Below, one piece after another: positions 15,531-61,506 of a DNA stretch of 64,000 nt (position 1 is its first letter; the number at the start of each line of letters is the position of its first letter). The notes below the pieces were generated by a model that had not been told where the DNA came from, ran no database searches, and saw nothing but the letters and a program-made list of their open reading frames with translations. The stretch is from Nemertoderma westbladi (lineage: Eukaryota > Animalia > Xenacoelomorpha). Where the stretch lies: contig JAUCBJ010007513.1 in assembly GCA_032718475.1 (NCBI GenBank), positions 66,515 to 130,514 of the forward strand, read 5' to 3'. A program made the translations under genes and the position numbers.

Positions 15531-15574
15531 CTTTCAACTTTATTGCTTACTGCAATAAAGACAATAACTGTTAT

Positions 15575-24206: not shown

Positions 24207-24366
24207 ATGTACTGATTCACTTATCCTATCCTGGTTATCCTTAATTCCCGAGGTCCCTGGTCCACTACCATGATCTCCAGTGTTAAACCCGCTGTTTGTA
24301 GTTGTTCCTCATTAGAATTCTACTCGGTCTACTAGAAAACGAGTCAGCGACAACTTTGTTGTCTCT

Positions 24367-26655: not shown

Positions 26656-27197
26656 TGTGACGGGATCCAGGAGGGATCCCGGTTTATCCGGTGTTAGTTC
26701 ACGCGTCCCCGCCGTGTGTGAAGAGTAAATGAAAATGAGTAAATGAGTTCGCGTCCTTCGTTGTATATAATGATCGGTATAAAGATATAGATATAGGTTG
26801 TTGTACACGGAAGGCGGGATACGGTAACTAAAGTCCCGGTCCTTCCCTAGCTAAACTATCTAACCTAAACTGGCACTAATATTGCACTGAGATAACTGAA
26901 CTGATATGATTACTGCCAAGTGGCTATATTGCACGGTTGGCCTTGTTACTCTACCTAATCGATGCCTTTCCCCCCGCTGATTGGTTGATACCCTTGTTGG
27001 CGCCCTTTGGAGTGTTCCCGTTCACTCCACCTGTTCTCTCTGGGTTAGGGGTTTGGCCCCTGACCCTCATTGTGTGCTTCTCCTTCCCATTCTCATTGGG
27101 ATGGCACGAGTTGGTTAATTACCCAATCTCGTGGCTCCCAATATTGCTTATCGGCTTATAACTTTATGGGGTGTTAGCGGGATTGAATAAGCTAACA
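26656..27197 (-). repeat. 3' LTR of element C
   Basis: Direct repeat of 38627-39167 with a few substitutions and small indels. Confidence 0.95.
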
Positions 27198-32800: not shown

Positions 32801-35800
32801 CTTTGCCGATGCGTCGACTACCATCCGTAGTTTACCTTTCTTTGGATCTAAAGCCACGTGTAGTGGCAGGTAATATGTCCTGTCCGTGTTCGGTTCGTCG
32901 ACCGGTAACTCCACGGCCCATCCTTTCTCGACGTACTTCTTAATCGTTCTGTGGATGTACTCATTCTTCTCGGGGCTCCGTTTTAGTGTTTGTTTCAGCT
33001 TGCGGAGTCTCGTGAGTACCATCCCTCTATTATCGGGCAGCGGTATCTTCGGTAGTTTCCATACCATTCCTATAGTATACCGCCCCTCATCGCATGTCAT
33101 CGATTCCTCCACGCTTTGTAAAGCCTGCTTGTCTTCTACCGAGGTCCCGACCCCGGTTTCTTTCAGTCCCTCGAAATCCTGTCTGAGCAGTCTTTTAAGC
33201 TGCTCTTCTGCTCCCTCGTCACCCATTTCCTGCATTGTTCCCGCAAACATGCATCCTGATGTCTCCGACATCCTAAATGGTATCTTGCTCTTGATTGGAC
33301 CACTCAGCGTCCACCCGAATGGTGTTAATATGGCCACCGGGTCACTCTGCTTGTCTTCGCCGAAGACCGTTTGCATTCTTTCATGGGCCGTTGGGCAGTC
33401 CATACCTACTATGATGGACACCTTCCTAACGTCCACGTCTGGGATTGAGAAGTCAATGTCGTCCAGGAATTTATACTGCTCGACCTCGATGTTGGTTGGC
33501 CGCCTGGCATTGATATTAATTGACTCTATCACTTGGATGGGGTCGATGGTTGCCCCGTAGTCGCATCCCGGTGCCACTGCTGCAATTGCGCACCGTCCTG
33601 TTCTCATCTCCAGGATCTCATCTTTGCTAGAGATGGTTGTTACCGCCATTCTGCTTGGCCTCGTTCTCAATCCTATCTCTTCGGCCACCCATTCCTCGAC
33701 TAATGTGAAGGCAGCTCCACTGTCAACCAGCATTAGTGTTGTTACTGATCGATTGCCTTCCCCAATCACTCGTACGGGTACTACTCCAAGTAACACCGTT
33801 CCTCTCTTCTTCGCCCCTACTGTGCTCGTTGCCATCGTTTGGCCTCTCCTCTGACCGAACTTTACCGGCTTCTCTTTGCATTCCCTAGCTCTATGTCCAC
33901 TCATCACACACCGTGAGCAGATTTTATTGCTCAACGCGTAATCTATCTGATCTTGCCTAGGTAGCGCCTGCCAGTACCTGCAGTTCATGGTTTGATGAAG
34001 CGCATTTGCGTGTAGCTGGCATTTGCTCTTTGGGTCGTAGCCCTCCTTATACAGCGCATTGCGTATCGCAGTTGCGTTTGTACCAAAGTCCCTACTATTC
34101 TTATTGTTTGGATTCGGCCTACTGGACGTACTGGGGTTATATTTATTTGTGTTGTTATTGTTCCCCTGTCCGTTCCATGGTGTGATCTCATCTTCGGCTA
34201 GCTGTGGACTTGCAGTCCCCTGCGTCGCTGCGTATGGCAATGATTGCCTGAGCCTCGGTAATGCGTTTGATGTATTGTGCTCTGGCTTCGGTCTATGGTA
34301 ATCCGTCTTCGGTCCCTTTCCCAGGCTATCTTCGCTATAGACTGGGTCAGTTATTAGTTCAGCCTCGTAGTTTAAGAAGCTTGACATTTCTTCTAAACCC
34401 GGTTCCGCACCCTTCCTATCTCGAGTGGAGAAAGCGATTTTCCTCCACTTGTTGCGCAGCCAGTTCGGTAGTGCCTGCGCTATCGTTGTGATGTTGTTGG
34501 ACGCGTTGAGCTCGTATGGCGCGTCTAGCGTCTTCAGCACGATTAGCGCCTTTTCAACTTTGTTAGCAAATGTCTTAATGCTAACGGGATTATCCTGTAG
34601 GCCACCCGATGTTATGCCCCTCAGTGTCTGTCTGATGATCTTGGCCGGGTGCCCGTATTCCCTGTCCAGTGCCCGCCATGCTGTCGTGAAGCCGCCCTCT
34701 ATTCCTTGATATTGCCTCACGATATCGTATGCTGGGCCTCCCGTGTATACTTGCAGATACTTTAGGCACTCCGCCTGCGTCAAGTTCTTTGTTAGTATTT
34801 CGTTACTATACATGCGCCGAAACTGTAAATATTCTTCCGGCCTACTCCCATCGAATTTGAATGGTTCCACGGGTGGTAACTCGATCCTCGTTTTCAACGC
34901 ATCGATCAACGTGGCCATCCCCATCGCCTGCGCTTCCAATGGATTCGATGGGTGCTGCATAGTTTCTCCTGTCTGGTGCGGTTCGTCCGTCCTATTTCTT
35001 GACTTTCTTTGACTTGGGTATGTCATCGGGGGTAGCGGCCCCCTCCATATTTCTGTGTCACACGACCTATTCTCATCCAAGGGTCTCGTTGTTCTTGCTC
35101 CTATCGGGGTATATTGTTGATATTGTGATGGGGGAATGTCACCCTGTCCCCCCCCCCCCCCCACCGGTATGTTTGGTACTGGGGTTGATGTTAATATATT
35201 GGGGCCCATACACCTATCCGCAATAATTCCCCCCTCCCCTGGGTATATGTTATGTCCCTGCATGCTGTAGTCATACTGCTGTACTGGTACCGGTATAGGC
35301 CTATCAGCTTCTGGCCTACTCGCCGGTATGTATTCCGCGACTTCCGGGTTTAATCCCGTTGTCCACGCTATCCTATCGCCTACATTGCCTCTCTCAGTAT
35401 GGCCTATGGTATGTGCAGTAAGGCCTACAGTATGTCCTACAGTCTGCATGTGTCGCTCGGGATCGAAGTTTATTCTTCTCGAATAGTCCTCCCCGCGGCT
35501 ACCGTATTCTCGATCGGTAGGTATATTCCGTCGGAAAGTTTCTCTTCGACCCCCCTCTCTACTGTTCTCATCTTCGTACCGGTACATCGCGTACCCCTCT
35601 CTCGGCGCGTAGTGCGCCTCGCCGGGTCGCATCTCTCCGGGGCGACGGCAATCTCCCGGAGTCCGACCCCACTGACTCTCTGTTCTCATCTCGACTACCG
35701 ACGGCTCGCTATCCGTCCTCGCTCTTCTATCGTTCGCGGCGATACTTCTACTACTGTCTTCTCTTCTTCTCCTTTCAGTGGAGTATTCCCGCTCGTGAGA

Positions 35801-38520
35801 TCTCTCGTCGACCTCCCGGTTAAATCCCACTGTTCTTCTTCCCTCTTCTGATCGGGCTCGACGCTTCGTCCGCCCTCTCACGACGTCAACCTCTCTCTCT
35901 CTGCTCGGTCGCACGCCGCTGGGGATACTCGCAATCCCCCTATTACTCTCCGTCGCCGGGTGTTGCGGTTTACCTATTTCGGCCCGCGCATTATCCGCTG
36001 ACGGCTGTGGGACACTCTCTGCCCCCCCCCCCCTTTCGCCGCTAACTCGCTGTTGTGGGGCCCCTGTAGCCCCCCCCCACTCGCCACATCTAACTTCGCT
36101 ATCCCTCACCCCGCTACTATATCCCTCTCTAGTCGACACATCAACCCTACCGCGGTCGGGTCTATTCACCCCCGCCTCTCCCTCTGCTATTGCGTGGCCT
36201 ACCAGGCCCTCTGCTCCCTGCCTACCAGTTATGTGGCCTACCAGGCCCTCGCTGGGTCTATCCAACCCAGCCACTCCCTGCCTACCAACTACGTGGCCTA
36301 CCAGGCCCTCGCCGGGTCTACCTAACCCAGCTACTCCCTGCCTACCAACTATGTGGCCTACCAGGCCCTCGCTGGGTCTATTCAACCCAGCCACTCCCTG
36401 CCTACCAACTACGTGGCCTACCAGGCCCTCGCTGGGTCTATCCAACCCAGCCACTCCCTGCCTACCAACTACGTGGCCTACCAGGCCCTCGCCGGGTCTA
36501 CCTAACCCAGCTACTCCCTGCCTACCAACTACATGGCCTACCAGGCCCTCGTCGGGTCTACCTAACCCAGCCACTTCCGGCCTACTAACTCTACGACCTA
36601 CCAGGCCCTCGTCTGTCTGGCCATACACGCCCGACGTGTTTACGTTAATAGCACCCATATCGGAAACGGAATCAATTTGTTCGTTCGAAACAAAATCATT
36701 TGAATTACTTTGCGCGACTACACTATTTGAATTATTTTGTAAATTCGGGCTCGGATCATTATTTAAATTATTTGGATTATTTTGTGTAATTGCGTTACTT
36801 AAATTATTTTGTAGGTTCGAATTTGGGTTATTATTTTGATTATTTGGATTATTTTGTGTAGCTACATTAATATTAGAATTATTTTCTACATTAATATTAG
36901 GATTGTTCTGATTTAAATTTAAATTACTATCACTAGGCAAAGTATTTCCTGCAATAAAGGTTTGATTAGAATTATCCCATACGGTACTATTAATATTAAC
37001 CACGTCTACTGTACCATTATCATTATTACCCCCCCCCCCCCGCCCGTACGGTCACACCAGTTTTGGGTCTGTCGTGCGGTCCCTGTAAGTGGGGTATTAA
37101 TAAATGTATCCACGGCCCCTGGCTCCCCTAAAATACTCGAGCCAGTCTCGCTCTCAGACGCCCCCGCCCGCACCAGTTGCAGCTCGTGCGTGCGTCTAAT
37201 CCTATGTTCCGCTAGCTCACTTTGGCGTCTCTTTAATTCCTTATGTTCTCGCTCAGCTTCTACCATTCTCCTCTCACACTCCCGCGCGTCCCGCTCAGCC
37301 AACTCTGCTACTCTCCTAGCGCTCTCCCTTCGCCTCGCTTCACGCTCCTTGCGTTCACTTTCCCGTCTCGCCTCACGCTCCTTGCGTTCCTTTTCCTCTC
37401 TCGCCTCACGCTCCCTACACTCCCTTTCCTCTATTTCATCACACTCCCTAAGGCCTCTCAAAGCCCTTTCAGCCCTCTCTCCGGTTTCTCTAATCAATGT
37501 CGCTTCCCTCTCTAGCCGCATTCTCCCCTCCTCTAGCTGTTTATCCATTTCCCTCTGGCCTTGCTTTATCAGGTCGAGACGGCACGCGGCACCTATCTCT
37601 CTCACCAGTCTTTCTTTTACGGAGGATGTAGCAGACTTATCGGTTGTGACGGATTCCCTCCGCCTTCCCGTCCTACTAACTTTCCCCCGCCTCCCGGAAC
37701 TTCCTCCGACCGACGAGGCCGAATCCTCGGGGTTAACCTCGGATTCGCCCCCTTCAGGTCCCCTCCAACCCACTAATTTTACTCCCCGGGCATCGACCAA
37801 GTATGGCCCTATGTACACTGACGCTACGCTAGGTTCCATACTCCCACATTCCCATAGTTCAAACAGTTCGCTGGCAACCCCTTTTGCTCTCTCCTCGGCT
37901 AGTTCTCTCTGCCCGAAGCGCATTAGATAATATAAATGTCTGTCCGACTTACCTAGTCCTGACTTTAGTTTTACCTCGTCTATCGTTTTCCCCTTCCTGG
38001 CCTCCTCTAGTAGTCTCCGGGTCGCGTTGTAGGCCCGTCGAAGTCGATCGGAGACCCCGACGTCCTCGTCGCCGACCTCTCCTCCGTCTCTCCGGGTTCG
38101 ACGTCGTACCGTCGGCCCCACCGTCGCCGTTCCGGTGGGCCGTCCGTCGCCCTCGGCCTGTGCCTGGCCGGCGACATCGGTATCGACATCTCCGTCGTCT
38201 CTCCGGGTCCGGCGTCGTACCGTCGGCCCCACCGTCGCCGTCTCGGTGGGCCGTCCGTCGCCCTCGGCCTGTGGCTGGCCCGCGACATCGGTACCGACGT
38301 CCGTGTCTCGTGTCGACTCGTCTCCGTCTCCCTCCGTCTCGCTCTCTCCTCCTCTCGGCTCGACCTCAGGTTCCAGGCGGCCCCCCTCATCCTCAGCTGC
38401 CGGATGACCCGTTACCGATGGGTCCGGCGTTGTGGGCCTGTACCGCCTGGTTGCGGCCTCGCGGATCGTTAGTTCTTCGTCCGGGGTCCGCGTCGGTGTC
38501 GTCTCACCTGACCGACTCAT
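29816..38520 (-). CDS. Element C gag-pol polyprotein (~2900 aa when joined across a frameshift at the G13 run ~37029-37041)
   Basis: FKFDGSRPEEY Gag, CQLH..C and CSRC..H..C knuckles, LVDSGA protease, YVDD RT, FSDAS RNase H, H..H..CQTC and VDMFGP/SDNGTNF/VERLV integrase, ending CLLE. The 504-aa and 2395-aa ORFs join by a -1 shift. Confidence 0.9.
36190..36612 (-). repeat. Coding tandem repeat, 60 bp (20 aa) x ~7, in the N-terminal Gag region of C
   Basis: EGLVGHVVGRQGVAGL(G/D/N)RP(G/S) repeated in the protein, with near-identical 60-bp DNA units. Confidence 0.95.
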
Positions 38521-38626
38521 CTTCTTTACCTCTAGATTGGTGGCTGGTAGTCGCTGTTTATCTAGGGCGGCAGCTGGTTTTAGTTACTGTTACAGTTTAA
38601 CTAGGGCGGCAGCTCGATTTAGTTAC

Positions 38627-39167
38627 TGTGACGGGATCCAGGAGGGATCCCGGTTTATCCGGTGTTAGTTCACGCGTCCCCGCCGTGTGTGAAGAGTAAA
38701 TGAAAATGAGTAAATGAGTTCGCTGTCCTTCGTTGTATATAATGATCGGTATAAAGATATAGATATAGGTTGTTGTACACGGAAGGCGGGATACGGTAAC
38801 TAAAGTCCCGGTCCTTCCCTAGCTAAACTATCTAACCTAAACTGGCACTAATATTGCACTGAGATAACTGAACTGATATGATTACTGCCAAGTGGCTATA
38901 TTGCACGGTTGGCCTTGTTACTCTACCTAATCGATGCCTTTCCCCCCTCTGATTGGTTGATACCCTTGTTGGCGCCCTTTGGAGTGTTCCCGTTCACTCC
39001 ACCTGTTCTCTCTGGGTTAGGGGTTTGGCCCCTGACCCTCATTGTGTGCTTCTCCTTCCCATTCTTATTGGGGTGGCACGAGTTGGTTGATTACCCAATC
39101 TCGTGGCCCCCAATATTGCTTATCGGCTTAACTTTATGGGGTGTTAGCGGGATTGAATAAGCTAACA
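38627..39167 (-). repeat. 5' LTR of element C
   Basis: Minus strand TGTTAGC...CCCGTCACA. Contains CCAAT (~38951), a TATA-like AATATA (~38897) and TCAGT initiator-like motifs (~38858-38877). Confidence 0.95.
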
Positions 39168-44223: not shown

Positions 44224-44821
44224 TGTTAATACACAGTCGGTATAATATCTAATATAACGTAAATATAAATTTTTTTCTAATATAAGTATATAACGAACAA
44301 ATAATATATAAATATACAGTATTACAACTCTACGATAAATGTCACCAGTATCTTTCTACTCCTACTCAATATCCCTCACCACTCTAAACCCCCATCCACC
44401 TTACAGTGCAATACCTTCTCCTTTACTCATACTACTGACCCACCTTACATTCACAATATAACTATCGTATACTCTCGATTCCTAATTAACTAATTATTGG
44501 TAAACTACAGTAATAATGTTTTCATCACATTCCCCCATGATAGACACGACATGGCTATCAATAAAACGATAATACATTCTCCATTTTAACCACATTCCCC
44601 CAAGCAAAATCTTACCTTTCCTCAAGCACAAATCACTCCAAGTCACTTAATCCAGATAAATCAGTTATAGGATTTCCGTATCTTTCGACAGGATTACGAA
44701 TTCTCCTGGAACGGCGCGGCACTTCCCTTTCCTCCAGAGCTTCTACAAATCCCGCTTCGTGCGACTCGCCATCGGACAACTGTTCAACCAAGAACGAATC
44801 TTCCAATTCTGGGGTACCTCC
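44224..44821 (-). mobile_element. 3' end of Gypsy E: integrase C-terminus, PPT and probable 3' LTR (limits uncertain)
   Basis: The reading frame continues across element B to EVPRRSRRIRNPVERYG. GGGGGAA|TGTG occurs at 44594 and again at 44529. Candidate ...TTAACA end at 44224. Confidence 0.6.
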
Positions 44822-46095
44822 TGTAAAAGCTTCTGTGGGATATAACTGGCCCTTTTGCTTCGCAATCCAGTTTCCCCCCTAGGCGCTGGAATACTCTAAA
44901 AGGCTCTATAACTATATATATATTCCCCTCGCCCGCAAGGTACCGTTATAGGTGTTTTAACGGACATAAAAGTCATTCTGCTATATACGTGTTTTGGCGG
45001 ACATGGTAAGGCAAAAAACCTGCAATGCACCAAATACCTTTACACAGCTTAGCCTTGATGATTCAGATTACGACATCTAACAGCTGGTTGCTGACATGGG
45101 AACAGCCATTGGACACGTAGTTCTTTGTTTAGCTTAAGCCAATCAGAGCGATTTTTTCTGTCGATGTGGAGATATTCAGCAGATCGTGCTAGTAGTGTTC
45201 AGTCTTACTGTTTTTTCTTGATACTGTTGTGTTGTTGCTATCTAGGCCAGGAACACCGGCTCTAGAGTCAATTCGTTTTCATACTTTAGAAGAAACATTA
45301 GTAGGCTTAAATTATAGAGCGTATAACTGTTATCAATTCATCACATATCTTATCTAATCATATCAACTGATCGCAATTCAGTCTTACATTATCGGTTCAA
45401 TATACATTATTATACTGCTATTTACTATTGTTTGGTTGAATATTATTTGGAGAATATTTATAAAGAACCGAAATTTCCCAATTTTCTTGATACACTACAG
45501 GTTAGAGAGACGGGTTATATATAGCGATTGCGACTTATATTATTGTGGTTTGTAGTGAATTTAATGCTATTTGATAAGCACTACATGAATCCGTTGCTGT
45601 CTTCTTTATATATGATAAAATTCATTGACGGTCGGCAAATTAGTGAGCAGTATTGTGTGTTACCGGTAGTGTGCATGATTGTGACTGATAACTAAGCATT
45701 TCCTAAAGAATGCGCCTCATACGTGAATCATAAGCCTTACCGACTTACCGTTGTGATTAGTATAAGTCATATCTCTGTTTACCTAGATAGAGCGCCACGT
45801 CCTAAAGGAACTGTTAATATTTCCCGAAAGTAAATAATATTAGTCAGAAATTATTTATTAACGATCAATCGAATAATACAATACAGTAAGCTTACACTGC
45901 AATAATAATCTAAGCCCTCAGAATCCAGTCTCCCGGGTATATCCAGCGGGTGAATGGACGCGCACTAGGCTGGCTTCTGCTAATGTTGTGTTTATTGGTA
46001 TTAAATATTTGTCATCTTCTAAAGTCTATTTATAAACCAAAAGACATATAAATTTTGGCGGGTTAAACTGCTAAAGGTCTTCAAAAGCGCGTACA
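44822..46095 (+). repeat. 5' LTR of copy B (1274 bp)
   Basis: TGTAAAAG...CGCGTACA. About six differences from the 3' LTR by eye. Confidence 0.96.
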
Positions 46096-48331
46096 ATAAC
46101 AGTTATTGACTTTATTGCAGTAAGCAATAAAGTTGAAAGTACCGGTCGACCGGTAAACCTGAACCGGTACTTCTGTAGGTCAGTAGGCCCAACTGCCAGA
46201 ACCGGTACTGCTGTAGGTCTGTAGGTCCAACTGCCAGAACCGGTACTTCTGTAGGTCCGTAGGCCCAACTGTCCTAACCGGTACTTCCAGTATAAGTACA
46301 TTAGTATTATTCGATTTTGATTATTGTATACCGGTAGGTCTCGATATTAAATCGGGGACGCCTGGTTTTTATTGAGATTTTACTTAGGTCTATTTCTGTC
46401 AGTTTTATTTCCTAGTAAGTTAATATTGAGCTGAAGACGTGTAAGTCTGCTCAGATTGTTCGGATAACTGTAGGCCGGACTGTTGTCGGATTGTTGTTGG
46501 GTTTGGAGAGATTACGGCGTGTGTAGAGTTTGTCCGATAGAGTGCCAGTTAGTAAGTTGGGGCAGCCATAGCTGTAAGGTCAATCCCCTCTTAAAGAATA
46601 AGTCGTACTACCGTGTTAGAACGCATACTAACTAACCATTTTGGAATCTGCACATACTGTAGTTTATTTAGGCTTGACAGTATTCTGCCAGCGTTTTGGT
46701 CTGTGTTTGTTTGTGTGGTCTGTTCAGGTACCGTAATAGTTATTACTCAGATATTTTGTAGGCTGGATTGTTGTCTAGCTATTATTAGGTCTGAAGATAT
46801 TGCTGCGTGTGTAGAGTTTGTCTGATAAAGTGCCAGTTAGTAAGTTGGGGCAGCCATAGCTGTAAGGTCAATCCCCTCTTAAAGAATAAGTCGTACTACC
46901 GTGTTAGAACGCATACTAACTAACCATTTTGGAATCTGCACATACAGTAGTTTATTTAGGCTTGGTGGTAGTCTGCCAGCGTTTTGGTTTGTATTTTGTT
47001 TGAGTATTCTGTACGGGTAGCGTAATATTTATTATTCAGAGTTTATGCGATTATTCGCAACATTCATGTCCCCAAGTTTATTCCTACAGTAATTGTGTTT
47101 GTTATACATACCGTTATAGTTAAATTAACCCCGGTACTACACGGGCTGCTTGGCGTAGGACAAGACTGGTGATTTTGTGCACCGGTCACTCCAGCAGATG
47201 CCGTGGTTCTTTTAACTGTTCAAGTATATTTAACTACTGATTATTTGTTGTACCAGTACTTGTACCTAATTTAGGGTTTAGTGTACAGTGCTTTCCGAGG
47301 TAATTAGTGTGTAGGCAGTATATTTGTGTTGTAAAGTAGTTAATAGGCACGCTGGATCTGGTAGTCCGCGGTAATTAACTTCTAGGTAGGAACACTCCGT
47401 GATACATAACGTAGTACCTATAGCAATACGGTTATAGGTCGTCAGGCGGTGGTATTTTCCTATCTGGACAGTGCAATATATTTACTACTACTTATTATTT
47501 CAAATACCGTAGTACCCTGTCCGTTGTAATAACCAGAATTCTAACCCTTTGTTAGGCTGGTTTGTAGACTTCCTGTAAAATTACCCTAAAATTTCGTACG
47601 TTATATTTTTGTTGTGTTTAATTAGAGATTTAATCTCACCCGTATCGTAAGTAATTTGTAGTATTAAGTAACTTAGGTAAATTAGAATTATCTGTTTTAG
47701 TGTCCCATAGGTAGCACTTCACTGAGATCGCACAGCTTCTGTGTAGTGACTCCCCCAGAAATAATAACATTTATTTCAAATATTGACAAAACCCCTTTTA
47801 AACGGGTATATATATATTATAAATCAACTCAAACGATTTATAAATAGTAGGCCTGCCATACAACAACTAGGTCTCAATATCAGTTGGACTACTGCTTAAA
47901 TAACGGTAATAAAGTAAGTTAAAGTAACTAAGTAACCCTAAAAATATTCAGAAATTCAATTATTCTAAAATAATTGACATACCGGTATTTACCATAGGCT
48001 TATTATATTTATTTCTATAAATTTGAGCTGAAATCATACCGGTACTCTGTAATTAATTCTAGTCCATAATTATACTTATATATACTATCAGTGTAAGCTG
48101 TATACCGGTATTCACGATAGGCCTATTATATATTTATATATATTTGTGCTAAAATTATATACCGGTACTCTGTGACAAACCTAGTTTACAATACTTATAT
48201 ATACTATAAGTGTATACCGGTATTCTAATATACTGCAATAAATTACCGGTACTAGGCCAACGGGCATACTGAATTACTAGACTTGCTTTAACTGTAACTA
48301 TAGCAGTAAGCATTCAACTGTATAGCTAAAC

Positions 48332-51300
48332 ATGTCTGACACCCAGCAAAACCTGTCAGACAGTCTAATCGATACAACCATCTGTGACACAGATAGGAGT
48401 GTGGAGCGATTAAGAAAGGAGTTCAGCTCACCTCCTACTGAAAGAAAGGTCATCCCTCCAGTAGTAGTATCAGACCCTAAGCTAATCCAACACCGTAGGT
48501 CTATCATCGGCACTCGGGCCCAAGTCAAACGGAACCAGGAAGCAGCTGTCCCACAGCAGCAACAGCCTAGTCAAGAAACTTGTTCCCAGCGATCCGATAG
48601 CTCCAGTAATTCGGATACTGTCGAGCTGACCCCCGAACGCGGATTGCAGATGGCGGCTAAAGCCTACTCGGACCCCCTTCTCACCCTTCCTGCCGCAGTG
48701 CTAACTACTATATTGATTGCGGTGGAGGAACATCAAGCCGATTGGGCGAGAAGTAAACGAGCGACCCAAGATAATTATGCGGGATACGCCAGGGAAGAAT
48801 TGATGTCTATTGTCGAGTCACAATGGAACTTTCCCGGACCCGGACTCCCGTTAGATTTGTCCGAAGCTACTTGGGAAGATATACACAGGATGGGAGTGAC
48901 TAAAGATACAATGGATCCAGCTGTTTGGAAGAGGTCGGCAGCAGGATATGTGCAGGGATTCTTCGGCTCCTTGGAGCGATCAGAAGAACAACTGTTTCGA
49001 CAACCCCAAGGACCTCAAGAGCAGGAAGAGCTGCTATATCAAGTACGCGAAAGAACCCTACGCATTAGACTAATCCTATCAGCCTTTGAGGAAACTTCCA
49101 AAAGAAGACAGGACACGTCGCTGCAGGTTGCTGTCAAAACTTGGTTCCAGCGGGTAGGTCTCAAAGTACAAGAAACGGACCAGTGGAAATCCCAGCTGTC
49201 TGAGAGACTAACCTATGAAGAACCAACCGATGCCACCCTTTCTCAAGTGGAAGGCGAAGAGACCGCAGAGAGACCACGAACGAGAGACGCCATCGACATA
49301 TATCTGTCCGACTATCAGCGATTCCTAGGAGACGAAGAGTTGAGGAGACGGCTGTCTGGACTTTCCCCTAATAGTGAAGGAACCCAGCGTGTGTTAGACT
49401 CAATCGATGCTGAAATGTTAGCTGCTAACCAAGCTGAGTTTGATGAAAAACTCCGCCTCACTAGAGTCCAAGAAGAACTAGTAAAGAAAAGACGGATAGA
49501 GGACCGAAAGGCAGCTGAAGTAACAGCGGCAATGGCAGAAGTAGAAGCAGAAAGAAAGGCAGCGGCGGCAGAAGCAGAAGCAGAAAGAAAGGTAACAGCG
49601 GCAATGGCAGAAGTAGAAGCAGAAAGAAAAGTAACAGCGGCAATGGCAGAAGTAGAAGCAGAAAGAAATATTCCCTATTCCCTATAGACCTGATAATGAT
49701 CCGAGAAATTTATATACCGATAATTCGATATTAAATAACACGATGGCCCAAGAAAGCTTTTCGCGTCAGATGGCTAGAACAGAAGCCCGCCAAGCGGTCA
49801 AAGTGGGAGAGATCGTCAAATTCAATGGAGATGAGATGAAATGGTTACCTTTCAACGAATATTACAAAGATAGCATACAAAACTCTGTACTATCTAACGG
49901 AGAGAAACTTAGGTTCCTCATCAAGTGCTTGGAAGGACCTCCCAGGTTAATGGCGTTAAAGTTTATTGGACATCCAGAAGGATTAAGACAAGTATGGGAT
50001 ACATTAAACATCAGGTATGGTAACAAGGATAACATAGCTAAGTATTTGTATGCAAAATTAGTAGCCCCCCGACACTTCCTTAGTAGCGGGATTATAGAGT
50101 TTTCCGATGAAATTCAGGAGATCTGTAGACAATTGGACTGGTTAGGTAAGTCTCATGAATATCAGAATTCAATGGTTATTGGAGCCGTAGTCTCTACTTT
50201 ACCAAAGGGTGGAGTATGTACACGCTGGGACAAGAAAGTGTTGTACATGAATGAATAACAACGACGAAGTCCTACCATGGCTGATCTCATGTCCTTCTTA
50301 GATGGTGAAGTAAAACTACAACTCATCAAGCAGTCCAGAGAGAAAACATCGGAAAATAAGGTAAGTGAGAAACCCGCTTCTAGGAGAAGAGTAACACCGG
50401 TGTGTTACACTGATGATGGCGAAAGCCAGGCTTCTCAAGAAGAGGACAGCGGGAAAGACACAGATCGATCTTACTATGTTGACAAAACCTCAAAAGATGT
50501 AAGTAAATACAAGGCTCGAAACAATGATAGGAGAGAACAGGTTGCCAAGACCCCTCCTCAGTCTCCTAACAGAATGCACCGAAGAAAACCCGAAGAAAAA
50601 ACGAGAGTGCATCAAGTTACCCAAGGTAAAGTGAGTAACATAAAACCTAACTGTGCGCTGTGCGACGGGACCCACCGTTTGAGTGCGTGTGCTGAATTTC
50701 TAAAGAAATCCCTTGTAGACAGACGTGCAGTCGTATGGGATAAGCGGTTATGCTATAATTGCCTCAGACCAGGACACCAACGGCGAACCTGTTACTCCGA
50801 CATAAAGTGTGCAAAGTGTGGCGCGAAACATCACATCTTGTTACACAGTGAGTTCGAACGAGACAAACAGAGTCAGGTAAGTGAGCCCGAACTACATGTC
50901 CAATTCAGTGATGTAAATGACACTGACCAGGAGTCTGAGATGGAAGGATTTTATACTGACGAATTCTCCGACGCCAACGAATCCTGTTATCTAATCAATA
51001 CCGCAGTGTATCGAGCACTTACTTATGAAAAGGACACTAACAATGAGTTTCCCCCAACTACTTTTGCCAAACAACCATCTTGGAAAGCTCCAACTTCCAA
51101 CGTAGGAATCAGAGAATTTCCTGTAGTGCAGGTAAGAGTTCACGGTCCTAACAAAAGTTACATAGTGAACGACTCCTTGACTCCGGCAGCACAGGAACAT
51201 TCATCGATCAAGAATTAGCCGAAGATATCTTTGCTGGACAACCCAAATTCCGGACTAAATTGAATATGTCAGGAATTATGCAGGTTTGGAAATCTACCCT

Positions 51301-54300
51301 AACGGCAGATTACTATGTAGGTGTGTTGTCCACCCCCCAGGATAAGTTAGGAGCACAAGGTATAAGGTCGGTAAAAATGGTGGCTATAAAGAACTTCGCT
51401 ACTACTCAAGCAGACCTTTATAATTGGGACGAGGATGAGAGCATCCAACATCTTAAGATACCTCGATTCCAGACAGATTATCCTGGAGTGCAAATACTCA
51501 TCGGCCAAAACGCGCATGAGGCGCTCGAAACATTGGAGAAACGGCCTGCTCAACCACAGCCACTGCAAACCTATGCGGTAAGAACTAGAGTAGGTTGGTA
51601 CTTTACTGGCCCTTCCCGCAGGACTCTCGAAGAGAGAATGCCACAAGAACAAACATACCAAGTAAACGATTGGGAAGTGGAGAGCAGTGAGGTGGACGAA
51701 CTAACTGAGGGAACACCATACTCCTCAGATAATGACGACATCTACCAACTCTTCGATGAAGAGAACACAATCGACCTACTTACAGAAAACCAAACTTGGA
51801 AAAATCAGGTGAACCTATGTCAACTGATTCGCCCATCGGAACCCATCGCTTACAATGACGAACTAAACGATGAGATAGAGCGCTACAACGCTAGAACTCG
51901 GGACGAACTAGCCGTACGATTCTTTACTCAAGAACTGGTAGAGCCTAATTCATATGATAAGGCCCTATCGATAGAAGAAGAAAGAGCCAAGCAAATCCAG
52001 GAAACAACTACACGTTTTTTAAAGGACCAAGGTAGATATGAAATCGGCCTACCATTTCGAAAACGAGAACCTAGATTTATAAATAACAGACCCTTGGCAG
52101 AGAAAATAATCGCTCAATTACATCGACGCCTTACGGCTAATGCTTCAGCTAAAGAAATGTACCAAACTCAGCTGAAGAAATTTATAACAAAGGGATACGC
52201 GGAGCGAGTACCGGAAGGAACACCAGTGACTGAGAGAACGTATTACTTAACACATCATTACGTTCCCAAACCCGGTAAACCCCACGAAGTACGAGTCGTA
52301 TTCGATGGCTCCGCCCTATATATGGGCCAATCCCTCAATTCCGAGTTGTTACCAGGACCCAACTTACTCCAATCTTTGTTGGGAATACTTTTAAGATTAA
52401 GACAATATTCCATCGCGTTCGCCTCAGATATAGAAGGAATGTTCTTACAAGTCAAGGCGCTGGATAGAGATAGAGACAGCCTGAGATTTCTGTGGTGGCC
52501 TGAAGGAGACCTCAATCAGAAACCGGTAGAGTACTGGATGACCATCCAGGCTTTTGGAATCATATCAAGCCCTTCCAACGCCTGCTCCGTGGTGCGAACC
52601 ACTGCGAATGACAACTGAGACTCCTTCTCAAAAGAAGTGATAGACAACATAAAACGCAATATATACATGGACGACAATTTAAGGTCCCTTCCATCAGTAG
52701 AAGAAGCCATAGCTGTCGCGAAAGGAACGGTAGAGTGTTTGAAAAGAGGTGGATTTCGACTGACGAAATTCACTAGCAACTCCCGTGAGTTTCTGGAAGC
52801 CATACCGGTAGAAGACCGAGGAACGAAAGACCTAGACTTAATAAAGGACGATCTTCCTGAAACCAAGACGCTAGGCTTGAAGTGGGACACTGAAAGATAC
52901 ATCCTGTTTTTTCAGTTAAAACAGCGAGATAATCCAGTTCAGACCAAACGGATTTGTTTAAGTATCCTGAGCACTTATTTCGACCCATTGGGATTTATTA
53001 GCCCAGTTATATTTATTGCTCGGAGTTTAGTACAACAAATGTGGCTTGAAAACCACTCATGGGACGATCCGCTTAAGGGAGAATTGTTAAAGAAATGGAT
53101 GAAATGGGAAGATTCTCTACCTGCCATCGAGAACTTTATAATTTCCCGTGCATATTTTGGCCATGTTCTTCCTACGTATTCTTATCAACTCCATGTGTTT
53201 GGAGACGCCAGCGACATGGGAATAGGTATAGTAGCATATCTGCGAGTCGAAACCCCGGATGGAATCAAAGTCGCCTTGGTTACCTCTAAGGCATTGATTA
53301 ACAACAAGTTAAAGGTTCCTCGAGCGGAGTTAAAGGCGGCTATATACGCTACAGCCATCGGCCGGAACGTAACGGAACAAATCGACTATCCACTGGAGAA
53401 AACGGTTTATTGGACCGACGCTTTACTCGTGTTGGAGTATCTAACCAATGAAGTCTGTCAGTTCAGCGTTTTTGTTACTAACAGAGTAGCTATTATTCTT
53501 AGTCGCACAAAGATAGATCAATGGAGACATTGCCCTGGTACGATTAATCCAGCCGATATCGCCTCCAGGGGAGCAACTCCACAGGAACTGATAGATACTC
53601 CAGATTGGTTGGGTGGACCCGACTTCCTGAGCAAGGAAGAGGATGAATGGCCTCCTCACCTTACTACGGCAGAGATTAGACAAGCCAAGGGAGTGGAGAC
53701 AGTCAAACCTAAAACCTGGGCGAGTAAATCGAAGTTATTTAAACCGACTATCGATCTATCTGTATTACACACTTCCGGGAATGATGCTTCGGATCCACAA
53801 TCCCTCAACACAAATAAGTCTGTTGTGGAAATTAGAGATAGAGATTGGAAATCTGGAATACCAGACGTCTCGCAAGGAATCTCACCCATGCTGCAGAGAG
53901 CAATGCATCATTACAGTTCCTGGAATCGGCTCTGTAAAGCCGTCACATATTTAAGACGATGTTTTCATCATCACTACTCCAGGACGAAGACCACTAGTGA
54001 TAACGCTCCATTGACATCTGCACAAGTTCATGTTATTAAAAATTTACCCAAATATAAGACATCTGACCGTTTTCTAAAGGAGAAAATTAGTCACCAGGAG
54101 CATGAAGAAACCAATAAGCAGATACTGAGACTCCTGCAATGCTATGAGGATTCCGAAAAGTATTTCCTGTTGTTGAGAAATCCGCAGATGCGCTTAAGGG
54201 ATCGATTCTCGAGCACAATGATAGATGGGCTAATACGTGTTGGAGGAAGACTCACCAATGCGCCCTTATCCTTTGACACCAAATTCCCCATACTTATTAG

Positions 54301-55561
54301 AAATCTTGAAGTACAAATCAAGATGATTGTAGATGTTCACAGTAAACTTTATCATGCTGGTAGAGAACGAATTCTTAGCGAAATTCGAACTCGCTATTAT
54401 TTTGATAAACCCCGTAGAGCTCTGAACCAAGTTCTTAGGAACTGCATACCCTGTAGGAAAGCATTCAGTAGGCCTTTAACACAGCGAGAGGCAGAATTAC
54501 CTAGGGAACGAGTAAGCTTCTATGAACCACCTTTTACTAATACTGGTGTAGATTTATTTGGCCCTATTGAAGTATATCGTGCTAGGACTATAGTCAAGAG
54601 ATGATGTGTCATCTTCGTGTGCATGACTTGTAGAGCCATCCATCTCGATATGGTGAACGATCTATCTACCAACAGCTTCGTCTTAAGTTTACGACGACAG
54701 ATCGCTCGCTTCGGGACGAGTAATACCATGAGATCGGATAAGGGAACGAACTTCATTGGTGCCAACAACGAAATACAGGCTTACGTGAAGGACTGGAACC
54801 AAAGACAGGTGGACGACCAGCTAAGGATAACAGCGTCTAGCTGGACCTTCAATGCCGCCGGCGCCCCTTGGTGGGGAGGAAGTTGGGAGAGATTAATTCG
54901 AAGTGTCAAAACCGCATTTCACTTTATAGTGCCATGCCGCGCGTATCTCACCGACGAACTTTTGCGGACATTAATGGAGGAAATCGCTGCCTATCTCAAC
55001 GAGAGACCGCTTATGCCAGTCTCATCGAGTCCCGATTCCCTGGAAGCGCTAACACCCGCGCACTTCCTACTGAAGAAACCTGTAGCCATGCTCCCACGAT
55101 CGGAGATTGCCGACGGAGACGAATACTGCCGTCGAACTTGGCAACTTATGCAGTTGCTATCCCGTCGTTTCGCTGACCATTTCAAGAAACATTATCTGCC
55201 CACGCTACAACTTCGAACTAAGTGGTTTGCGCAGCAAGAAAACGTCAGCGCCGGAGATATGGTGCTTATTGTAGATCCAGACCTTGGCATACGGTGATCT
55301 GACAAACGGTGGCAGACAGGTCGTATCATCGAGACCCACATCTCGGACGATGGTTTAGTACGCTCGGTAGAACTCATCGTCATGCGGCGTAACTTCAAGA
55401 AGCCAGGCATAATCTTTGAGACGCAACAACTCAATCGCCCAGTTGGTCGTTTATGTTTACTGGAAAGAGACAGAGAACTCTCCGGAAACTATGGAAGGCA
55501 AGACACTCTTCCCACGACCACCTCCCTAATTCCTCAAACATCTAGGGACTCCCCAACGTGA
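48332..55561 (+). pseudogene. Copy B gag-pol, including the RNase H and integrase missing from A; disabled
   Basis: ~0.9-kb gag deletion at ~49668 relative to A, stops at 50256, 52616, 54602 and 55295, and a frameshift in the protease motif at ~51171. Integrase motifs HSKLYH..CIPC, VDLFGP, SDKGTNF, WERLI. Confidence 0.93.
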
Positions 55562-56104
55562 TACGTCTGGAGTGGGTGTATGATTACATTATTTTACCTA
55601 TTTTATTATATTTTTATATGCGAACTTTATTATGTACTTTATTATAATCGTTTTTATTCAATTTTATTTAGTAGAATGTTATTTTAGTGATTATTTAGTA
55701 GATTAGTGCAATATATTAGTGTTTATTACGTACGTAATTACTTATAATATATATTTAGTGCGACGGCGAGAAATAATTTTTCTCTTTCCTTACTGTCCGT
55801 ATCACATTATAAATACGTGACTACAGTAAGATGAAATGTCCGTACTTCTTAAAGTACAATAAAGCCACTACTATATTCAAGTGTTATTGGTAGGCAGAGT
55901 ATTAGGAATGCAAAGTTCAGATCCTCGTGTCTCGGCTAAACCAAGCTCTGGGTAGACCTTGGAAACGACTTGCCTCTTCACACTGACATTGCTTCGTGCG
56001 ATATTGCTCTTCTACCTTATATTAAATAATACTTATAGTAGCGTGATGTCCTTCTAACAGTAGCGTAAAACGCAAATAAACCTGTTAAACCTTTTGACCA
56101 TCTG

Positions 56105-56390
56105 TAATTCTAGTCGATTAAGATATCGCGGCACCCACCGATATACTTGAAAGACCAATTCTAGAATCAGTGGTTAACGTCCCCAGACAAGCTCTGGAAT
56201 AAATCGGTGCCCATCTTAAATATTAATTTAATATTTATTAAAATCTGTAAAATTCAGATCCGTTAACAATTCTAGTCGATTAAGATGTCGTAGCACTTAC
56301 CGATACTCTTAAAAGACAAATTTCATAGAATTAAGGATCCTATGTCCCCAGACCTGCTCTGGAATCAAATTGTGTCAATTATTAACATCA
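56105..56390. repeat. ~160-bp degenerate tandem duplication in the pol/accessory spacer of B
   Basis: AATTCTAGTCGATTAAGAT...GTCCCCAGAC..GCTCTGGAAT occurs at ~56106 and ~56268. Confidence 0.75.
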
Positions 56391-57185
56391 AATAATAAAA
56401 TTCACGGGAATAAATTTAAATTCATATTTTAAATGAATTTCATAAATTGTCATTTTGTACAATTTATAACATTCCCAAAATTCCATTAATTAATAGATCA
56501 TGGGAGCGGAGATTCATCTTATTGAGTGTATTAGAGTGCGAGAATCTCCAACATATAGTCAATAGCCGATAAAATTAATAAAATCATGCATAAAGAGGAT
56601 ATTGACAATTAAAGAATTATTATTAAATAGCATCCCAGATCTGTATGCATGAGAATTACCCTAATTCTACCCCTAGCATTCCATAATGTCACCATAGCAA
56701 CACCCACGCTAGAATTAGAAGCAAGTTAAAAGAACAATAGAAAGCTTGTCCCATTGCCTAGCATAGAGAATATAGCACACTGCTAGTATCCAAGGATACA
56801 CAGTAATAACGTGACATTCTGGAAGGCACTGACTAACGGACAAATGGCCTGTATGTGTGCAGTTGGTGACAGTTGTGTGGAATTTGTGCGTTTATAGGTG
56901 AATGTTACTGCTAAAGTATGTTTACAGTAGCTAGTCGCAATTGTAAAAGTAGCCCAACTCTCCTATAGAAAGAACCTAAGTGGATCCAAGCCTTTGGGAC
57001 GGACAGTGGAGTGACTTGTGCCGGTTATCGTTGTCGTGCTGTTGCTACATGTTGGCGTAAACACCGCGACGACGGTACATCGGCGCTGAGAATCCCACTG
57101 TCCGGGGGCAAAGAGAAGTAGGCAGCGACGCCCGCTCGCCTAAAATATAAACTTAGTTGGATATTAATAAACTCAGATAGCAGAT

Positions 57186-59597
57186 ATGACGGAGTTGATA
57201 GAAGATGATCTTGGTATTAGGGAGCGATATACTCTACCTTTACAAGCATTTGTGGATAGCTTAATACGCGGTGAAGCCGATCCAACCATTACGGAGGACG
57301 ATGGTCGTTATATCGAACCGCCGATGTCCCAAGAGCAACTTGCGCGTGAATTGGACTATCGAAAATTCACCACTCGCTATACGAATCGTAATGGTACGTA
57401 TATGGACTTCTTAACGACCGGCCATCCTATCGATTTACATGATACGGACGATGTAGATACAGAGAGGGAAATGGTTCTATTTAAATATCATACCCAGCGG
57501 AGTCGTAACGATAAACCGAGAATAGATCACGAAAATTCTATTCGTAATAGACTGGAAAGAGAAAACGTTGAAGAACCGGATAAACGCATCGACTTCAACG
57601 AATACCTAGAATTTTTGAGAGAAACCTATCTCAACATCGCTAGTCAGCAGAACTTAGAGACTCGATATCCTCAAGGTATACATCACGACCCTGTGGTAGA
57701 ACTCAAACGGCTCTATTTCACTATGATGTATCTTACCGCCGATCGTCCACTACCTGTTATCCCGGATAGTTTTGAACAAATGGAAGAATACTGCAAAACT
57801 GGAGAACGATCACCCGCGTTTCCTCTACAGGACGTACGTCTTTGGTATTATTGTGACGAATGCCCTAGACCCAACCAACAAACTGAAAGACATAAACATC
57901 CGCGGAGACGTTGCGCTAAACACAGCTTTACGCGTTACACTTACGGGAGTTTCGAGCGAAACCTGTTCGACATACCACCTACGATCGCTCGTCTTAAACG
58001 ATCACTGAATAAACCCATGATCAGAGTTCCGGAATACTCGGTCAGGCCTCCTCATTCCCTAGTGAGACCTCAAACTCTTGATCCTAACAGTATCACTGAT
58101 CCTCCCGAACTATATTCCCTGTTCAAAGACTTAGTGTTACCCGAACAATTAATCGGTGGTGCTCCGGTAGTGGGTTCGTTAGACATCCGCCCATCCTACT
58201 TAGCCGGATTGGGACGCGGGCAGCTAATATCGCCCTTTGATCCTTACAATCGTCCAGGATTAAACCCGATGCAACCCGCCACGGAAGTCGAGGAGAGCGT
58301 TATAAGAAACGCTTTAGACGCCATTCGACAGAAAATCGGAAAGGGAACACAAGATTGTTTAGAGAAACGTAAATTACAACAACAAGTCCAATCGGTGAAG
58401 GAGTTAGCCTTGCCACAGTTCGATAGAGAAATCCAAAACCTCGAGGAAGACATCGAGCTTGGACGCACGTATTCTCTACAAGAATTTTTAGATGAACGCT
58501 TACAGAGACAAGCGGAAGAAAATCTACTCGAAGAGAAACACACGAAACTGGAAGAGAGAGAGGAAGCCGCTTTAGCCCAACCGGAAGCTCAAATCCTCAT
58601 GACGGACCTCTACTCTAAAACCGTTCGTCATCCCTCGATGATTCCACATTTCGGGGACAAGCTCTTCGCGACGATACAACCTCAACCGGTTGATATCAGT
58701 ACAGGATCGCAAAATCTTATCGCTGACGCCCCTATGTTACAGCGTCCGCCGATCGAGGCCGCTCGTGTTGACGGTATACTCGTTGAACCTCCGGACAATC
58801 GAGCGGATCTTGTCCGTCGTATGGTACACGATGTCAACATACGCGCTAGACCTTTACAGAACTCGTTTTATGGGATTAAAGACCACCCTTATTACGTTAA
58901 TCTGACTCAATATTATATGGTAAAACCAGAAGACCCGACACATAATTTAAAGTTTCTACCACTAATAAATCCTCTAGACATTGTCGAACTCGAACAATTG
59001 CAGAAACATCTGGATCAGTTAGTAAAGGTAAACTCATTCAGAAAACCATATAACATTTCTCGAATCGAGAAAGATATAGAACCTCCTTATAATCTCGATG
59101 GATTTATTAAAACTCGATTAGTCCATTGGAATCTAGATGTATTATTTGAAGAAGAGAAAATACAAAGATATGGAAATGTGGAGACGTATACCACTCGGCA
59201 CATGAAGTATAGTGATCTCCCTGACACTAACCAATGCGCCACCTTGTGGCATCCAGTAGGGATGACCCTAGAGAACGCCACCAAGGAGTGGAATGAAACT
59301 CTTAATGTTATTGAGATGTATGGAGTTGTCACCTACGATAATGAAGGTAGCGTTCCGGTCGGAGAACTAGGAACTACGCGCATGATTCACATACGCGGAT
59401 TAGCTGGTTCTACCCACGTGTTTACTCGAGCGTGTTCCGACGTGATTGATTATTCCTTTGAAACTCTCACCGAAACACAAAAGAATCTCCGACATGGACA
59501 ATTCGAACTCGCGCAGCGTTACGTCATTGACACCGAACGCAAACCGGCCATGGGCATCGATGTTACCCCAGCCCGTACTCGAGATGTTATTCAATGA
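57186..59597 (+). CDS. Bel/Pao accessory ORF X1, 803 aa, unknown function (Cys/His motif, coiled coil; no signal peptide or TM segment)
   Basis: Long open frame inside the LTR-bounded element. YYCDECPR...HKHPRRRC; coiled coil around LEKRKLQQQVQ...KLEEREE. The N-terminus is conserved in copy A. Confidence 0.85.
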   Translation: MTELIEDDLGIRERYTLPLQAFVDSLIRGEADPTITEDDGRYIEPPMSQEQLARELDYRKFTTRYTNRNGTYMDFLTTGHPIDLHDTDDVDTEREMVLFKYHTQRSRNDKPRIDHENSIRNRLERENVEEPDKRIDFNEYLEFLRETYLNIASQQNLETRYPQGIHHDPVVELKRLYFTMMYLTADRPLPVIPDSFEQMEEYCKTGERSPAFPLQDVRLWYYCDECPRPNQQTERHKHPRRRCAKHSFTRYTYGSFERNLFDIPPTIARLKRSLNKPMIRVPEYSVRPPHSLVRPQTLDPNSITDPPELYSLFKDLVLPEQLIGGAPVVGSLDIRPSYLAGLGRGQLISPFDPYNRPGLNPMQPATEVEESVIRNALDAIRQKIGKGTQDCLEKRKLQQQVQSVKELALPQFDREIQNLEEDIELGRTYSLQEFLDERLQRQAEENLLEEKHTKLEEREEAALAQPEAQILMTDLYSKTVRHPSMIPHFGDKLFATIQPQPVDISTGSQNLIADAPMLQRPPIEAARVDGILVEPPDNRADLVRRMVHDVNIRARPLQNSFYGIKDHPYYVNLTQYYMVKPEDPTHNLKFLPLINPLDIVELEQLQKHLDQLVKVNSFRKPYNISRIEKDIEPPYNLDGFIKTRLVHWNLDVLFEEEKIQRYGNVETYTTRHMKYSDLPDTNQCATLWHPVGMTLENATKEWNETLNVIEMYGVVTYDNEGSVPVGELGTTRMIHIRGLAGSTHVFTRACSDVIDYSFETLTETQKNLRHGQFELAQRYVIDTERKPAMGIDVTPARTRDVIQ

Positions 59598-61431
59598 AAG
59601 AATCCTTAAGATCGGCTCAGCTGTTTATGGAGATCTCCAAAACGACTTTCGGAATATGGAGAACATTCCATACCCTTTCGTTGATACTCAGCTGATTGCC
59701 CCCTGGGCAGTAGGTCGAGGTTTCTTCCGCACCATGTATGCTAATACGTCTAGCAACATTACAAAGGTGCAACGAACTTCCATCGGACATCTTGCCTTTC
59801 AGGAATACGGATGGAATTTCAAAGTCGGAAATCCCATTAACTATCAACAAGTATACGGAGACCATTATTCTCGATTATACTTTGATGGACCATTGACCGC
59901 ACCTGGTGCCGTGTATAGCTTCATGAGTGTTCCACTCCGTCCCTCCTTAGCTATATACACGATCTTTGAAAACACAGCACTTGCCGGTTGGCTAGCCGAT
60001 GTGTGCAGTCGTACTATACGCGCCCATCCATTAATACTTGGGACCAAACTCGCTAAGCTAGATGAACATAATAAATTCATCCATTTCGAATGTTTCCGGC
60101 GATTTTTAACCCCGTTCCGCAACGTGGATAGCCAATTTAAAGACCGCGCTTTGACCAAGCTCAGCCTAAGAAACTCAGCTGCAGAGAAGTTGGATAGCGC
60201 TGGATTCGCCGTTTTCCAAGAGATTTGTATATCGAACTTGCACTCTTCTGTTATACAAAGACCTCGAATCCCCACAGGTTATTCTGTCGTGGAAATTCAG
60301 ACAATAGGTCCACCTGAAGAGACAGACGCGCCCACTTCAGCTATGCACTTGGAAGACGAACCAATATGTCTAGAATCTGAAGAGATTCAGCCTATCGCGC
60401 CCCGGAACAGCGACAACGATTACATCATAGAATGGTATCAAGGTCCACAGTGTCTCACTGCGTACGATTATCGACATGCCAACTATGTTTCTAGGCAACG
60501 TTGTCGGTTATGCGCATCGAGAGACCACGATACGCCCATGGACACCAACGTCCGCTGTTCCTATTTCCAAGAACAACCGACTATGGAAATTTATTGCGCA
60601 TATTGCAGACTCAATAACTTGCATATCTTTGCGGTTTGCCCTCAATTTATGACTCAATGTCACCATTGTCAACTAAAGGGACATGCCAGTTTCGATTGCC
60701 CTTTTAATCACGATTTGGAAAGCGTAGATGAAATGATCATACTACGTTACATCAGAGCTTGGGAAGCGTACGCTGATTTACATTGTGATTCGCGCCATCG
60801 CTATTATCCCGGACGCGCTTACGAAGGAGTTTATGCGTTCCATCCTTATCTATTCGCTTCGGTTGAACAGAAATCACGCATATCAAGTTACGAGCTACTG
60901 AAGCGCGTTGGAGAATGTATTTCAACCAAATTCGTACGCAAATTTCTCAGGAGTGTTAATCCTAGCGACCTTCATTCCTATAACTTAATCAATTATATCC
61001 GTCAGGATCCGGACTATGGAGACTTGTTTGTTAACTCACACCCCGAGTTACAGGAAGTATATCGACGGCCTTACGAATACCGAGCCCGCGAACGCGAGTT
61101 GGAAAGGACCATTAAACCCCGGAGGTTTCTAACTGCCTATGGTCCACCCACGGCCCTCGTTCAGACCACTCGTAAATGACCCGTAAGAGCGGCTGTCTTG
61201 AAACGAGCTCTCAAAGCCGTTAGACCCCTCTCCCCGGACGTTGATGTCAATCAACCCGGTACTTCGACTGGCGGATACACCGACCATAATCCTACACCCT
61301 CTGATGCAATCATATTGCACCCTTCACCCAGGAGTTATAGCCCTCCTTGTAAAGTGGCTCGCCCCAAAGAGAAAAGGACTCTGGCTAGCTTTAAGAAACT
61401 GCGTAAACGCCGTCCGCGCAAGAAAGACTAA
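59446..61431 (+). CDS. Bel/Pao accessory ORF X2: triple Zn-knuckle and basic C-terminal tail; one premature stop at 61177 in this copy
   Basis: CRLC..H..C, CAYCRLNNLHIFAVC, CHHCQLKGHASFDC (CX2CX4HX4C); ends KKLRKRRPRKKD. In the +1 frame relative to X1, with an ATG at 59584 just before the X1 stop. Confidence 0.85.
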
Positions 61432-61506
61432 CTGTTTAGAGTATTTACGTTTAGAAACTATGATTTTGAATATTTTATAGACTCAAATCCCATTTTCTGG
61501 GAGCGG

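Follow-up and report, generated by a model that had tools for sequence, protein, structure and literature searches.

Bel/Pao elements are normally primed by a tRNA, and the locus described here raises the question of how members of this superfamily start minus-strand DNA synthesis where the tRNA site is missing. The window, a 64-kb stretch of the Nemertoderma westbladi genome (contig JAUCBJ010007513.1, positions 66,515 to 130,514 of the forward strand; coordinates below count from its first letter), holds three Bel/Pao elements, A, B and C, and one nested Gypsy element. The TGG that marks a tRNA 3'-end primer site was found in none of A, B and C. An initial annotation had proposed tRNA-independent self-priming for A and B, and this remains the best reading: judged from their sequences, A/B and C probably need no tRNA and start minus-strand DNA synthesis from element RNA, in a manner like that of Tf1, with a primer that the long terminal repeat (LTR) carries ready-made.

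Element B lies on the + strand at 44822-62776. Its two LTRs (5' LTR, 44822-46095, TGT...ACA, 1274 bp; 3' LTR, 61507-62776) are 99% alike, with 1263 identical columns, 7 substitutions and 4 gap columns. As the target-site duplication CCTCC (44817-44821, second copy 62777-62781) fixes the bounds of the LTRs, the 5' LTR ends at 46095, and the annotated end, set by the junction of 3' LTR and duplication, was correct. Element A lies on the - strand with its 5' LTR at 15575-16812; its 3' LTR is cut by the window edge. The LTRs of A and B are identical in 1186 of 1280 columns and thus represent one family, which is why the two were treated as a single observation.

The primer-binding-site position of B, 46096-46106 (+; ATAACAGTTAT), abuts the LTR. 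It is the exact reverse complement of 45323-45333 (+; ATAACTGTTAT) inside the same LTR, and positions and letters agree with those first reported. The predicted 3' end of the primer is 45333. This candidate self-primer segment is kept in A, in B and in the 3' LTR of B (62008-62018); in A, segment and site are at 16301-16311 and 15564-15574 (both -). The pattern ATAAC.GTTAT occurs five times in the 64 kb, every time at homologous places of A and B. The absence of TGG, likewise noted before, extends over the first 60 nt of the leader in A, B and C. When the LTRs were shuffled with dinucleotide composition preserved, an 11-nt exact complement at offset 0 arose in 9/5000 cases for B and 5/5000 for A. 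The nested Gypsy element (2583-7634, +), which served as internal control, has an ordinary primer site with TGG at position 1 of its leader and no self-match beyond 4 nt, a length reached in 3214/5000 shuffles. The complementarity of the primer site to its own LTR is a genuine feature of A/B.

Element C represents a Bel/Pao family distinct from A/B (about 34% identity to A over reverse transcriptase (RT)-RNase H), with its LTRs on the - strand at 38627-39167 (5') and 26656-27197 (3'). The first 9 bases of its leader (38618-38626, -), again without TGG, are the exact complement of LTR positions 38804-38796, a result equalled in 14/5000 shuffles. This candidate self-primer segment (38796-38804, -) is not palindromic. 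A second helix arm at 38817-38829 (-) pairs with leader positions 38594-38606 near register, over 13 bp including G:U; it ranked in the top 0.2% of registers and 4/200 shuffles were as good. The whole 45-nt duplex was matched by 0/200 shuffles. Within the leader of C (38567-38626, -), a second, slightly altered copy of the primer-site region lies about 39 nt downstream, and it too is preceded by ACA.

Relatives were sought by RT-RNase H alignment scans, which gave 6 loci in genome contigs and 418 in metagenome contigs, of which the best 80 were used; no relative was found in the viral contig collection. Among these 86 loci, 16 repeat pairs were inspected, of which 11 define a 5' LTR end. The other five were excluded: the pair in L006 belongs to a nested element, the two in L010 are coding repeats, and in L062 and L080 the repeat breaks early. 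Loci L001-L006 are contigs of bacterial metagenome-assembled genomes bearing Bel/Pao elements, most likely contamination from host animals. The nested LTR element of L006 (1572-6291) lies on the opposite strand, and its primer site resembles the half-tRNA type.

Two of the 11 relatives with a junction-defined LTR end (L025 and L042) are of the tRNA type: a TGG lies no more than 6 nt past the LTR end, and their self-matches span just 4 nt. The other nine have no TGG, and eight of them match their own LTR over 11-15 nt: L005 and L027 contiguously (11 nt each), and six only across a predicted GT..AG joint (L006, L012 and L018 with 11 nt, L054 with 12, L021 and L026 with 15). The ninth, L002, reaches 8 nt exactly, and its spliced match carries one mismatch. 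In cross-family pairs, used as control, 11 nt was reached in 1/208. Each of the 12 primers examined has AC or AT as its last two letters. The primer site directly follows the LTR in A/B, in C and in four relatives, while in five a gap of 2-4 nt separates the two. Conserved complementarity in related families had been named as a test of the proposal, and since C and eight of the nine relatives without TGG keep a cognate match in different letters, the result supports self-priming in A/B and C.

A strict blind scan, in which the site had to start with GT or AT and strong splice sites were demanded, took in 62 further loci with 300 nt or more of upstream sequence. It was positive for 10/62 loci, and for 0/62 in every one of five decoy sets. 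Among the ten are two duplicates, of L012 and of L018, and three loci closely related to L018. A looser scan was unspecific (16/62 loci against 2-6/62 decoys). Relaxed matches of 10-11 nt in L024, L078 and L080/L082 had no decoy control and were left out of the counts. The relaxed scan of 20 loci left 11 without a match, several of these without an LTR in the contig. By eye, an 11-nt splice-type self-match was also seen in L065 (330-570), where the LTR end is not ACA; it is likewise without decoy control and uncounted. As L065 branches among tRNA-type loci, it suggests that the trait extends beyond the main clade.

From these sequences, most relatives appear to build their primer by splicing out an intron that lies within the LTR: six of the 11 junction-defined relatives match their primer site better with the predicted exon-exon joint than with the unspliced LTR. 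The A/B primer might therefore depend on splicing as well, either because an intron at 45006-45289 brings the primer near the cap or because intron-bearing copies exist outside the window. This is a variant of self-priming and not an alternative to it, and we regard it as possible but rather doubtful. The weak candidate intron (45006-45289, +) ends 44 nt ahead of the primer end and leaves the 11-mer uncut; its donor (5.5) and acceptor (7.8) score in the low part of the relatives' ranges (5.4-9.8 and 7.2-14.1), and the nearest relative, L026, is of the splice type. Against this, a splice joint inside the A/B 11-mer was sought and none was found: the best GT..AG joint gives 10 nt and the contiguous match 11. 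For C the values are 8 and 9; its spliced reading (8 nt plus a bulged extension) was rejected, the splice sites scoring far under those of the relatives. The A/B family is also present at high copy number in public contigs of four host runs, and none of the 16 listed loose ends (of 37) begins inside the 11-mer, so these contigs give no sign of A/B copies with an intron there. From one contig of run X5, about 297 nt of LTR sequence ahead of the primer are missing (44979-45277), a stretch that overlaps the candidate intron but differs from it.

Alternatively, a host tRNA fragment or another small RNA could prime at 46096. The match in the LTR would then be a remnant or have a regulatory role, for example as a switch masking the site or as a contact in dimers. 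Some Copia lineages are known to use half-tRNA primers (PMC6317226), and the near-palindromic 11-mer allows two RNAs to dimerize through it (-5.0 kcal/mol). The cognate duplex has twice the stability of this self-dimer, however, and the site letters vary by family, each fitting its own LTR or predicted joint, which fixed host primers would not need. Priming by a host small RNA is improbable. Within the window, ARAGORN detected no tRNA gene, and Rfam gave nothing in 44800-48400.

The initial annotation left two routes to the primer: fold-back of the 5' RNA with cleavage, or an RNA ending at 45333. In the latter, no cleavage would be needed, the 3' end being formed at the R/U5 border or in a short terminated transcript. 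The LTR indeed lacks AATAAA, as stated there, yet ATTAAA, a candidate poly(A) signal, lies at 46000-46005 (+), 96 nt from the LTR end, in both A and B. Across the 12 elements examined, one AATAAA or ATTAAA was present in each of nine LTRs, always downstream of the primer end (9/9); in seven of the nine relatives it lies 12-80 nt past the primer, and upstream there was none. A candidate promoter is the TATA-like run at 44907-44921 (+), some 420 nt before the end of the primer. Since the hexamers are all downstream, the primer segment most likely lies inside the transcript, and fold-back with cleavage is preferred over an RNA ending at 45333.

Conservation does stop directly past the 11-mer, as an RNA end at this point would suggest. 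Identity between A and B is 58/60 over LTR positions 455-513, 34/86 over 514-597 and 663/680 beyond, so that a hypervariable, G-poor block (45335-45418, +) is flanked by LTR that is 95-97% conserved. The divergence was first described as immediate; the motif is kept as claimed, but the C at 45334 is still common to both copies and the block starts at 45335, two bases after the primer end. A G-poor stretch past the primer is present in A, B and C, and not in the nine relatives. Host copies of A/B are alike up to the primer end and divergent beyond. No substitution is listed at ≥2% over 45268-45372 in the host contigs, which is not proof of identity, and run X4, conceivably an RNA run, has no contig there. 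The eight longest pieces of run X1 all stop at 45333-45335, and contig depth collapses in the block: summed depth over successive 4-nt bins was 88k, 20k, 6.6k and 2.1k in X1 and 65k, 11k, 4.5k and 1.6k in X3. A wider alignment of host contigs gave the same trough (45310-45431). Because depth is summed over contigs and tapers near their edges, it was used as a boundary marker only. The block may reflect a free linker, slippage in short repeats or the end of a template. A poly(A) tail on an RNA ending at 45333 would in addition block its use as primer, and together with the downstream hexamers this leaves that route very improbable.

Also very improbable is that an AT-rich near-palindrome matched by chance or that the two places are copies of a protein-binding site. 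With one mismatch the 11-mer does recur in direct orientation as well, and its extensions in B are at chance level, but A/B and C are jointly rare in shuffles, the central base is complementary and not identical in every copy, and the relatives share the geometry with unrelated, non-palindromic letters. For the group as a whole, the cross-family and decoy controls largely refute chance.

For self-priming by fold-back and cleavage, the following course is proposed. Transcription would start upstream of 45323 and end past the ATTAAA at 46000. In the 5' part of the RNA, within the same or a co-packaged molecule, 45323-45333 would pair with 46096-46106, and a cut just past 45333, likely by the RT/RNase H of the element by analogy with Tf1, would free a 3'-OH. 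RT would then copy from 46095 back to about 45334, and the resulting DNA would transfer to the 3' LTR copy, where the primer segment and all that lies upstream would be copied again. The primer would accordingly not be an 11-nt 5' end, but an internal segment that ends a longer capped fragment, at least about 100 nt long. Splicing of the LTR intron would join the paired letters in most relatives; A/B and C would carry them ready-made. As the scheme copies primer segment and intron anew from the 3' LTR, introns would persist only if that copy escapes splicing, and intron-free primers (A/B, C, L005, L027) would arise when it does get spliced.

Several observations weigh against self-priming in A/B and C or lend it no further support. 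The pairing had been said to continue in register beyond the 11-mer; the strings quoted for copy A (15545-15574 and 16301-16330) are correct, but the extension is weak. In A it comprises 10/19 positions in register (top 1.5% of registers, over a span chosen by eye) and in B 7-8/19 (top 10-22%, chance level), and its duplex energy was equalled by 31/200 and 55/200 shuffles. The core duplexes are themselves weak (-10.1 kcal/mol in A/B, -7.3 in C), and the 11-mer is, as cautioned at the outset, AT-rich and nearly palindromic. A pretzel-like topology can be drawn for A/B, in which 45890-45905 (+) pairs with leader positions 46113-46126 (14/200 shuffles as good in B and 30/200 in A; alone not significant) and a second helix joins about 45954-45964 to the LTR end, in the order of the Tf1 pretzel. 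Such flanking helices are not significant in A/B (14-49/200 shuffles as good) and not consistently so in the relatives. In planar folds of long LTR-plus-leader RNAs the probability of the helix was ≤0.17 in 6/7; only in the seventh, with B folded from LTR position 469 onward, did most helix pairs reach 0.8-0.94. A pretzel is a pseudoknot and lies outside the model of the folding program, so the folds were taken as weak counter-evidence and not as support. For C, the core is merely 9 nt, a length seen in 4/208 cross-family pairs, a matching target-site duplication was sought and not found, and the LTR contains neither AATAAA nor ATTAAA (as in L005 and L026). Under a stricter acceptor filter the match of L006 drops from 11 to 8 nt. 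Finally, A/B and C fall outside the well-supported clade of self-complementary loci.

This clade was obtained in a tree of RT-RNase H with 31 rows (LG+G4, no mixture model), the rows being loci and host-labelled proteins only. Thirteen self-complementary loci form one clade (100/97), into which a host-labelled hemichordate protein fell in earlier trees. B groups with the splice-type L026, its nearest row (94/81), in an unresolved part of the tree to which both tRNA-type loci also belong, and C forms a long branch outside the clade. A single origin of the self-complementary elements is neither shown nor rejected (approximately unbiased test, p 0.345 without C and 0.34 with C). L027, which has no strong splice sites, groups with splice-type loci (clade support 100/100), a placement that fits intron-free primers arising through splicing of the 3' LTR copy.

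Tentatively, and with slightly less confidence than doubt, we suggest that a large Bel/Pao branch swapped tRNA priming for an internal self-primer assembled by the spliceosome and cut by the element after a conserved AC or AT, that this form repeatedly gave rise to ready-made primers (A/B, C, L005 and L027), and that the long-branched C may represent a second origin. If so, replication would depend on the 5' LTR copy being spliced and the 3' copy being left unspliced, and the hypervariable block past 45334 would be the mark of a template end left by the cut.

Apart from priming, the elements have the features of their class. Pfam matches to DUF1759, Peptidase_A17, integrase and DUF5641, in Gypsy-like order, were found in A, in pieces of B and in C, and B combines TG...CA LTRs and a target-site duplication with a polypurine tract (61499-61506, +) ahead of the 3' LTR. 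The gag-pol of B (48326-55297, +) is split over several frames and matches Pao peptidase A17, an integrase zinc finger and DUF5641; that of A (7593-13346, -, as far as the Gypsy insertion) matches DUF1759 and Pao peptidase A17, and that of C (29816-37051, -) DUF1759, protease, Pao peptidase A17, integrase and DUF5641. A/B have a long coiled-coil-like extension ahead of DUF1759 and two extra open reading frames (ORFs) between pol and 3' LTR (57171-59597 and 59446-61179, +; partly 398-2456 in A). The second is rich in Cys and His. Neither matched Pfam, and the first was also without an ESM Atlas match. The stretch matching B 57560-60347 is missing from A. The long A/B leader contains AATAAA at 46126-46131 (30 nt past the 5' LTR), short tandem repeats with ACCGGT at 46140-46290 and a 288-bp duplication at 46469-47040. 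In C, a separate ORF of 525 codons (37006-38583, -), without a Pfam match, lies upstream of gag-pol and overlaps it. The ORFs at 21162-26850 (-) resemble, by eye, a non-LTR element (endonuclease, RT), and within this region a cysteine-protease-like ORF, also judged by eye, stands beside the 3' LTR of C.

One nematode Bel/Pao family reportedly encodes its own tRNA-like primer. Self-priming in Bel/Pao was not found in the literature searched by terms, a coverage to which most subscription journals, the original Tf1 papers and Repbase notes do not belong. The surveys consulted do not treat Bel/Pao primers at all. In their main texts, the Bel/Pao clade survey (PMC6238403) contains neither 'primer' nor 'tRNA', PMC3118150 none of 'primer', 'tRNA' and 'priming', and PMC554778 neither 'tRNA' nor 'priming'. 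Five 8-mers sought in the supplements of PMC13524379 were not found, and since the Gypsy control motif was likewise missing, this search is uninformative. Self-priming was known before from Tf1/sushi-type Gypsy elements and had been predicted in a few plant lineages. Bel/Pao is a main LTR superfamily of animals. It is reported only from metazoans (PMC3601003). If its self-priming is confirmed, pipelines that demand a tRNA site would overlook such families. Self-priming predicts that the RNA on strong-stop cDNA is derived from the element and ends at a set base, across a splice joint in many relatives. If confirmed, three superfamilies would share self-priming or have re-invented it, which bears on the open question of whether self-priming preceded tRNA priming in LTR elements (PMC3601003).

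Compared with known systems, A, B and C resemble the tRNA-primed Bel/Pao loci L025 and L042 in gag-pol domains, TG...CA LTRs, polypurine tract and 5-bp target duplication, but differ from them in the primer site, where L025 and L042 have TGG and no self-match. In plants, self-priming was likewise predicted from sequence for Tcn1 (Gypsy) and for TAR, Houba and Osr-1 (Copia), with tRNA-using neighbours (PMC6317226); these are Gypsy and Copia elements, however, and splicing is not described in the available part of that source. The closest likeness is to Tf1, Tf2 and Tj1 of the Tf1/sushi group. In the Tf1 type, the primer site follows the 5' LTR directly, is complementary to the element's own LTR over about 11 nt and needs no tRNA, and the mRNA begins with the primer, which is held in a pretzel of three duplexes (PMC4600332; bioRxiv 10.1101/2022.12.06.519325) and, in Tf1, is reportedly released through cleavage by RT/RNase H (a study cited in PMC4600332). 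A/B and C share the site that adjoins the LTR, its complementarity to the own LTR and the lack of TGG. They differ in that pol is of the Ty3/gypsy chromovirus kind in the Tf1/sushi group and of the Bel/Pao kind, by Pfam, in A, B and C; in A/B, moreover, the flanking duplexes are not significant and the primer is apparently internal to the transcript, whereas that of most relatives reaches across a predicted splice joint.

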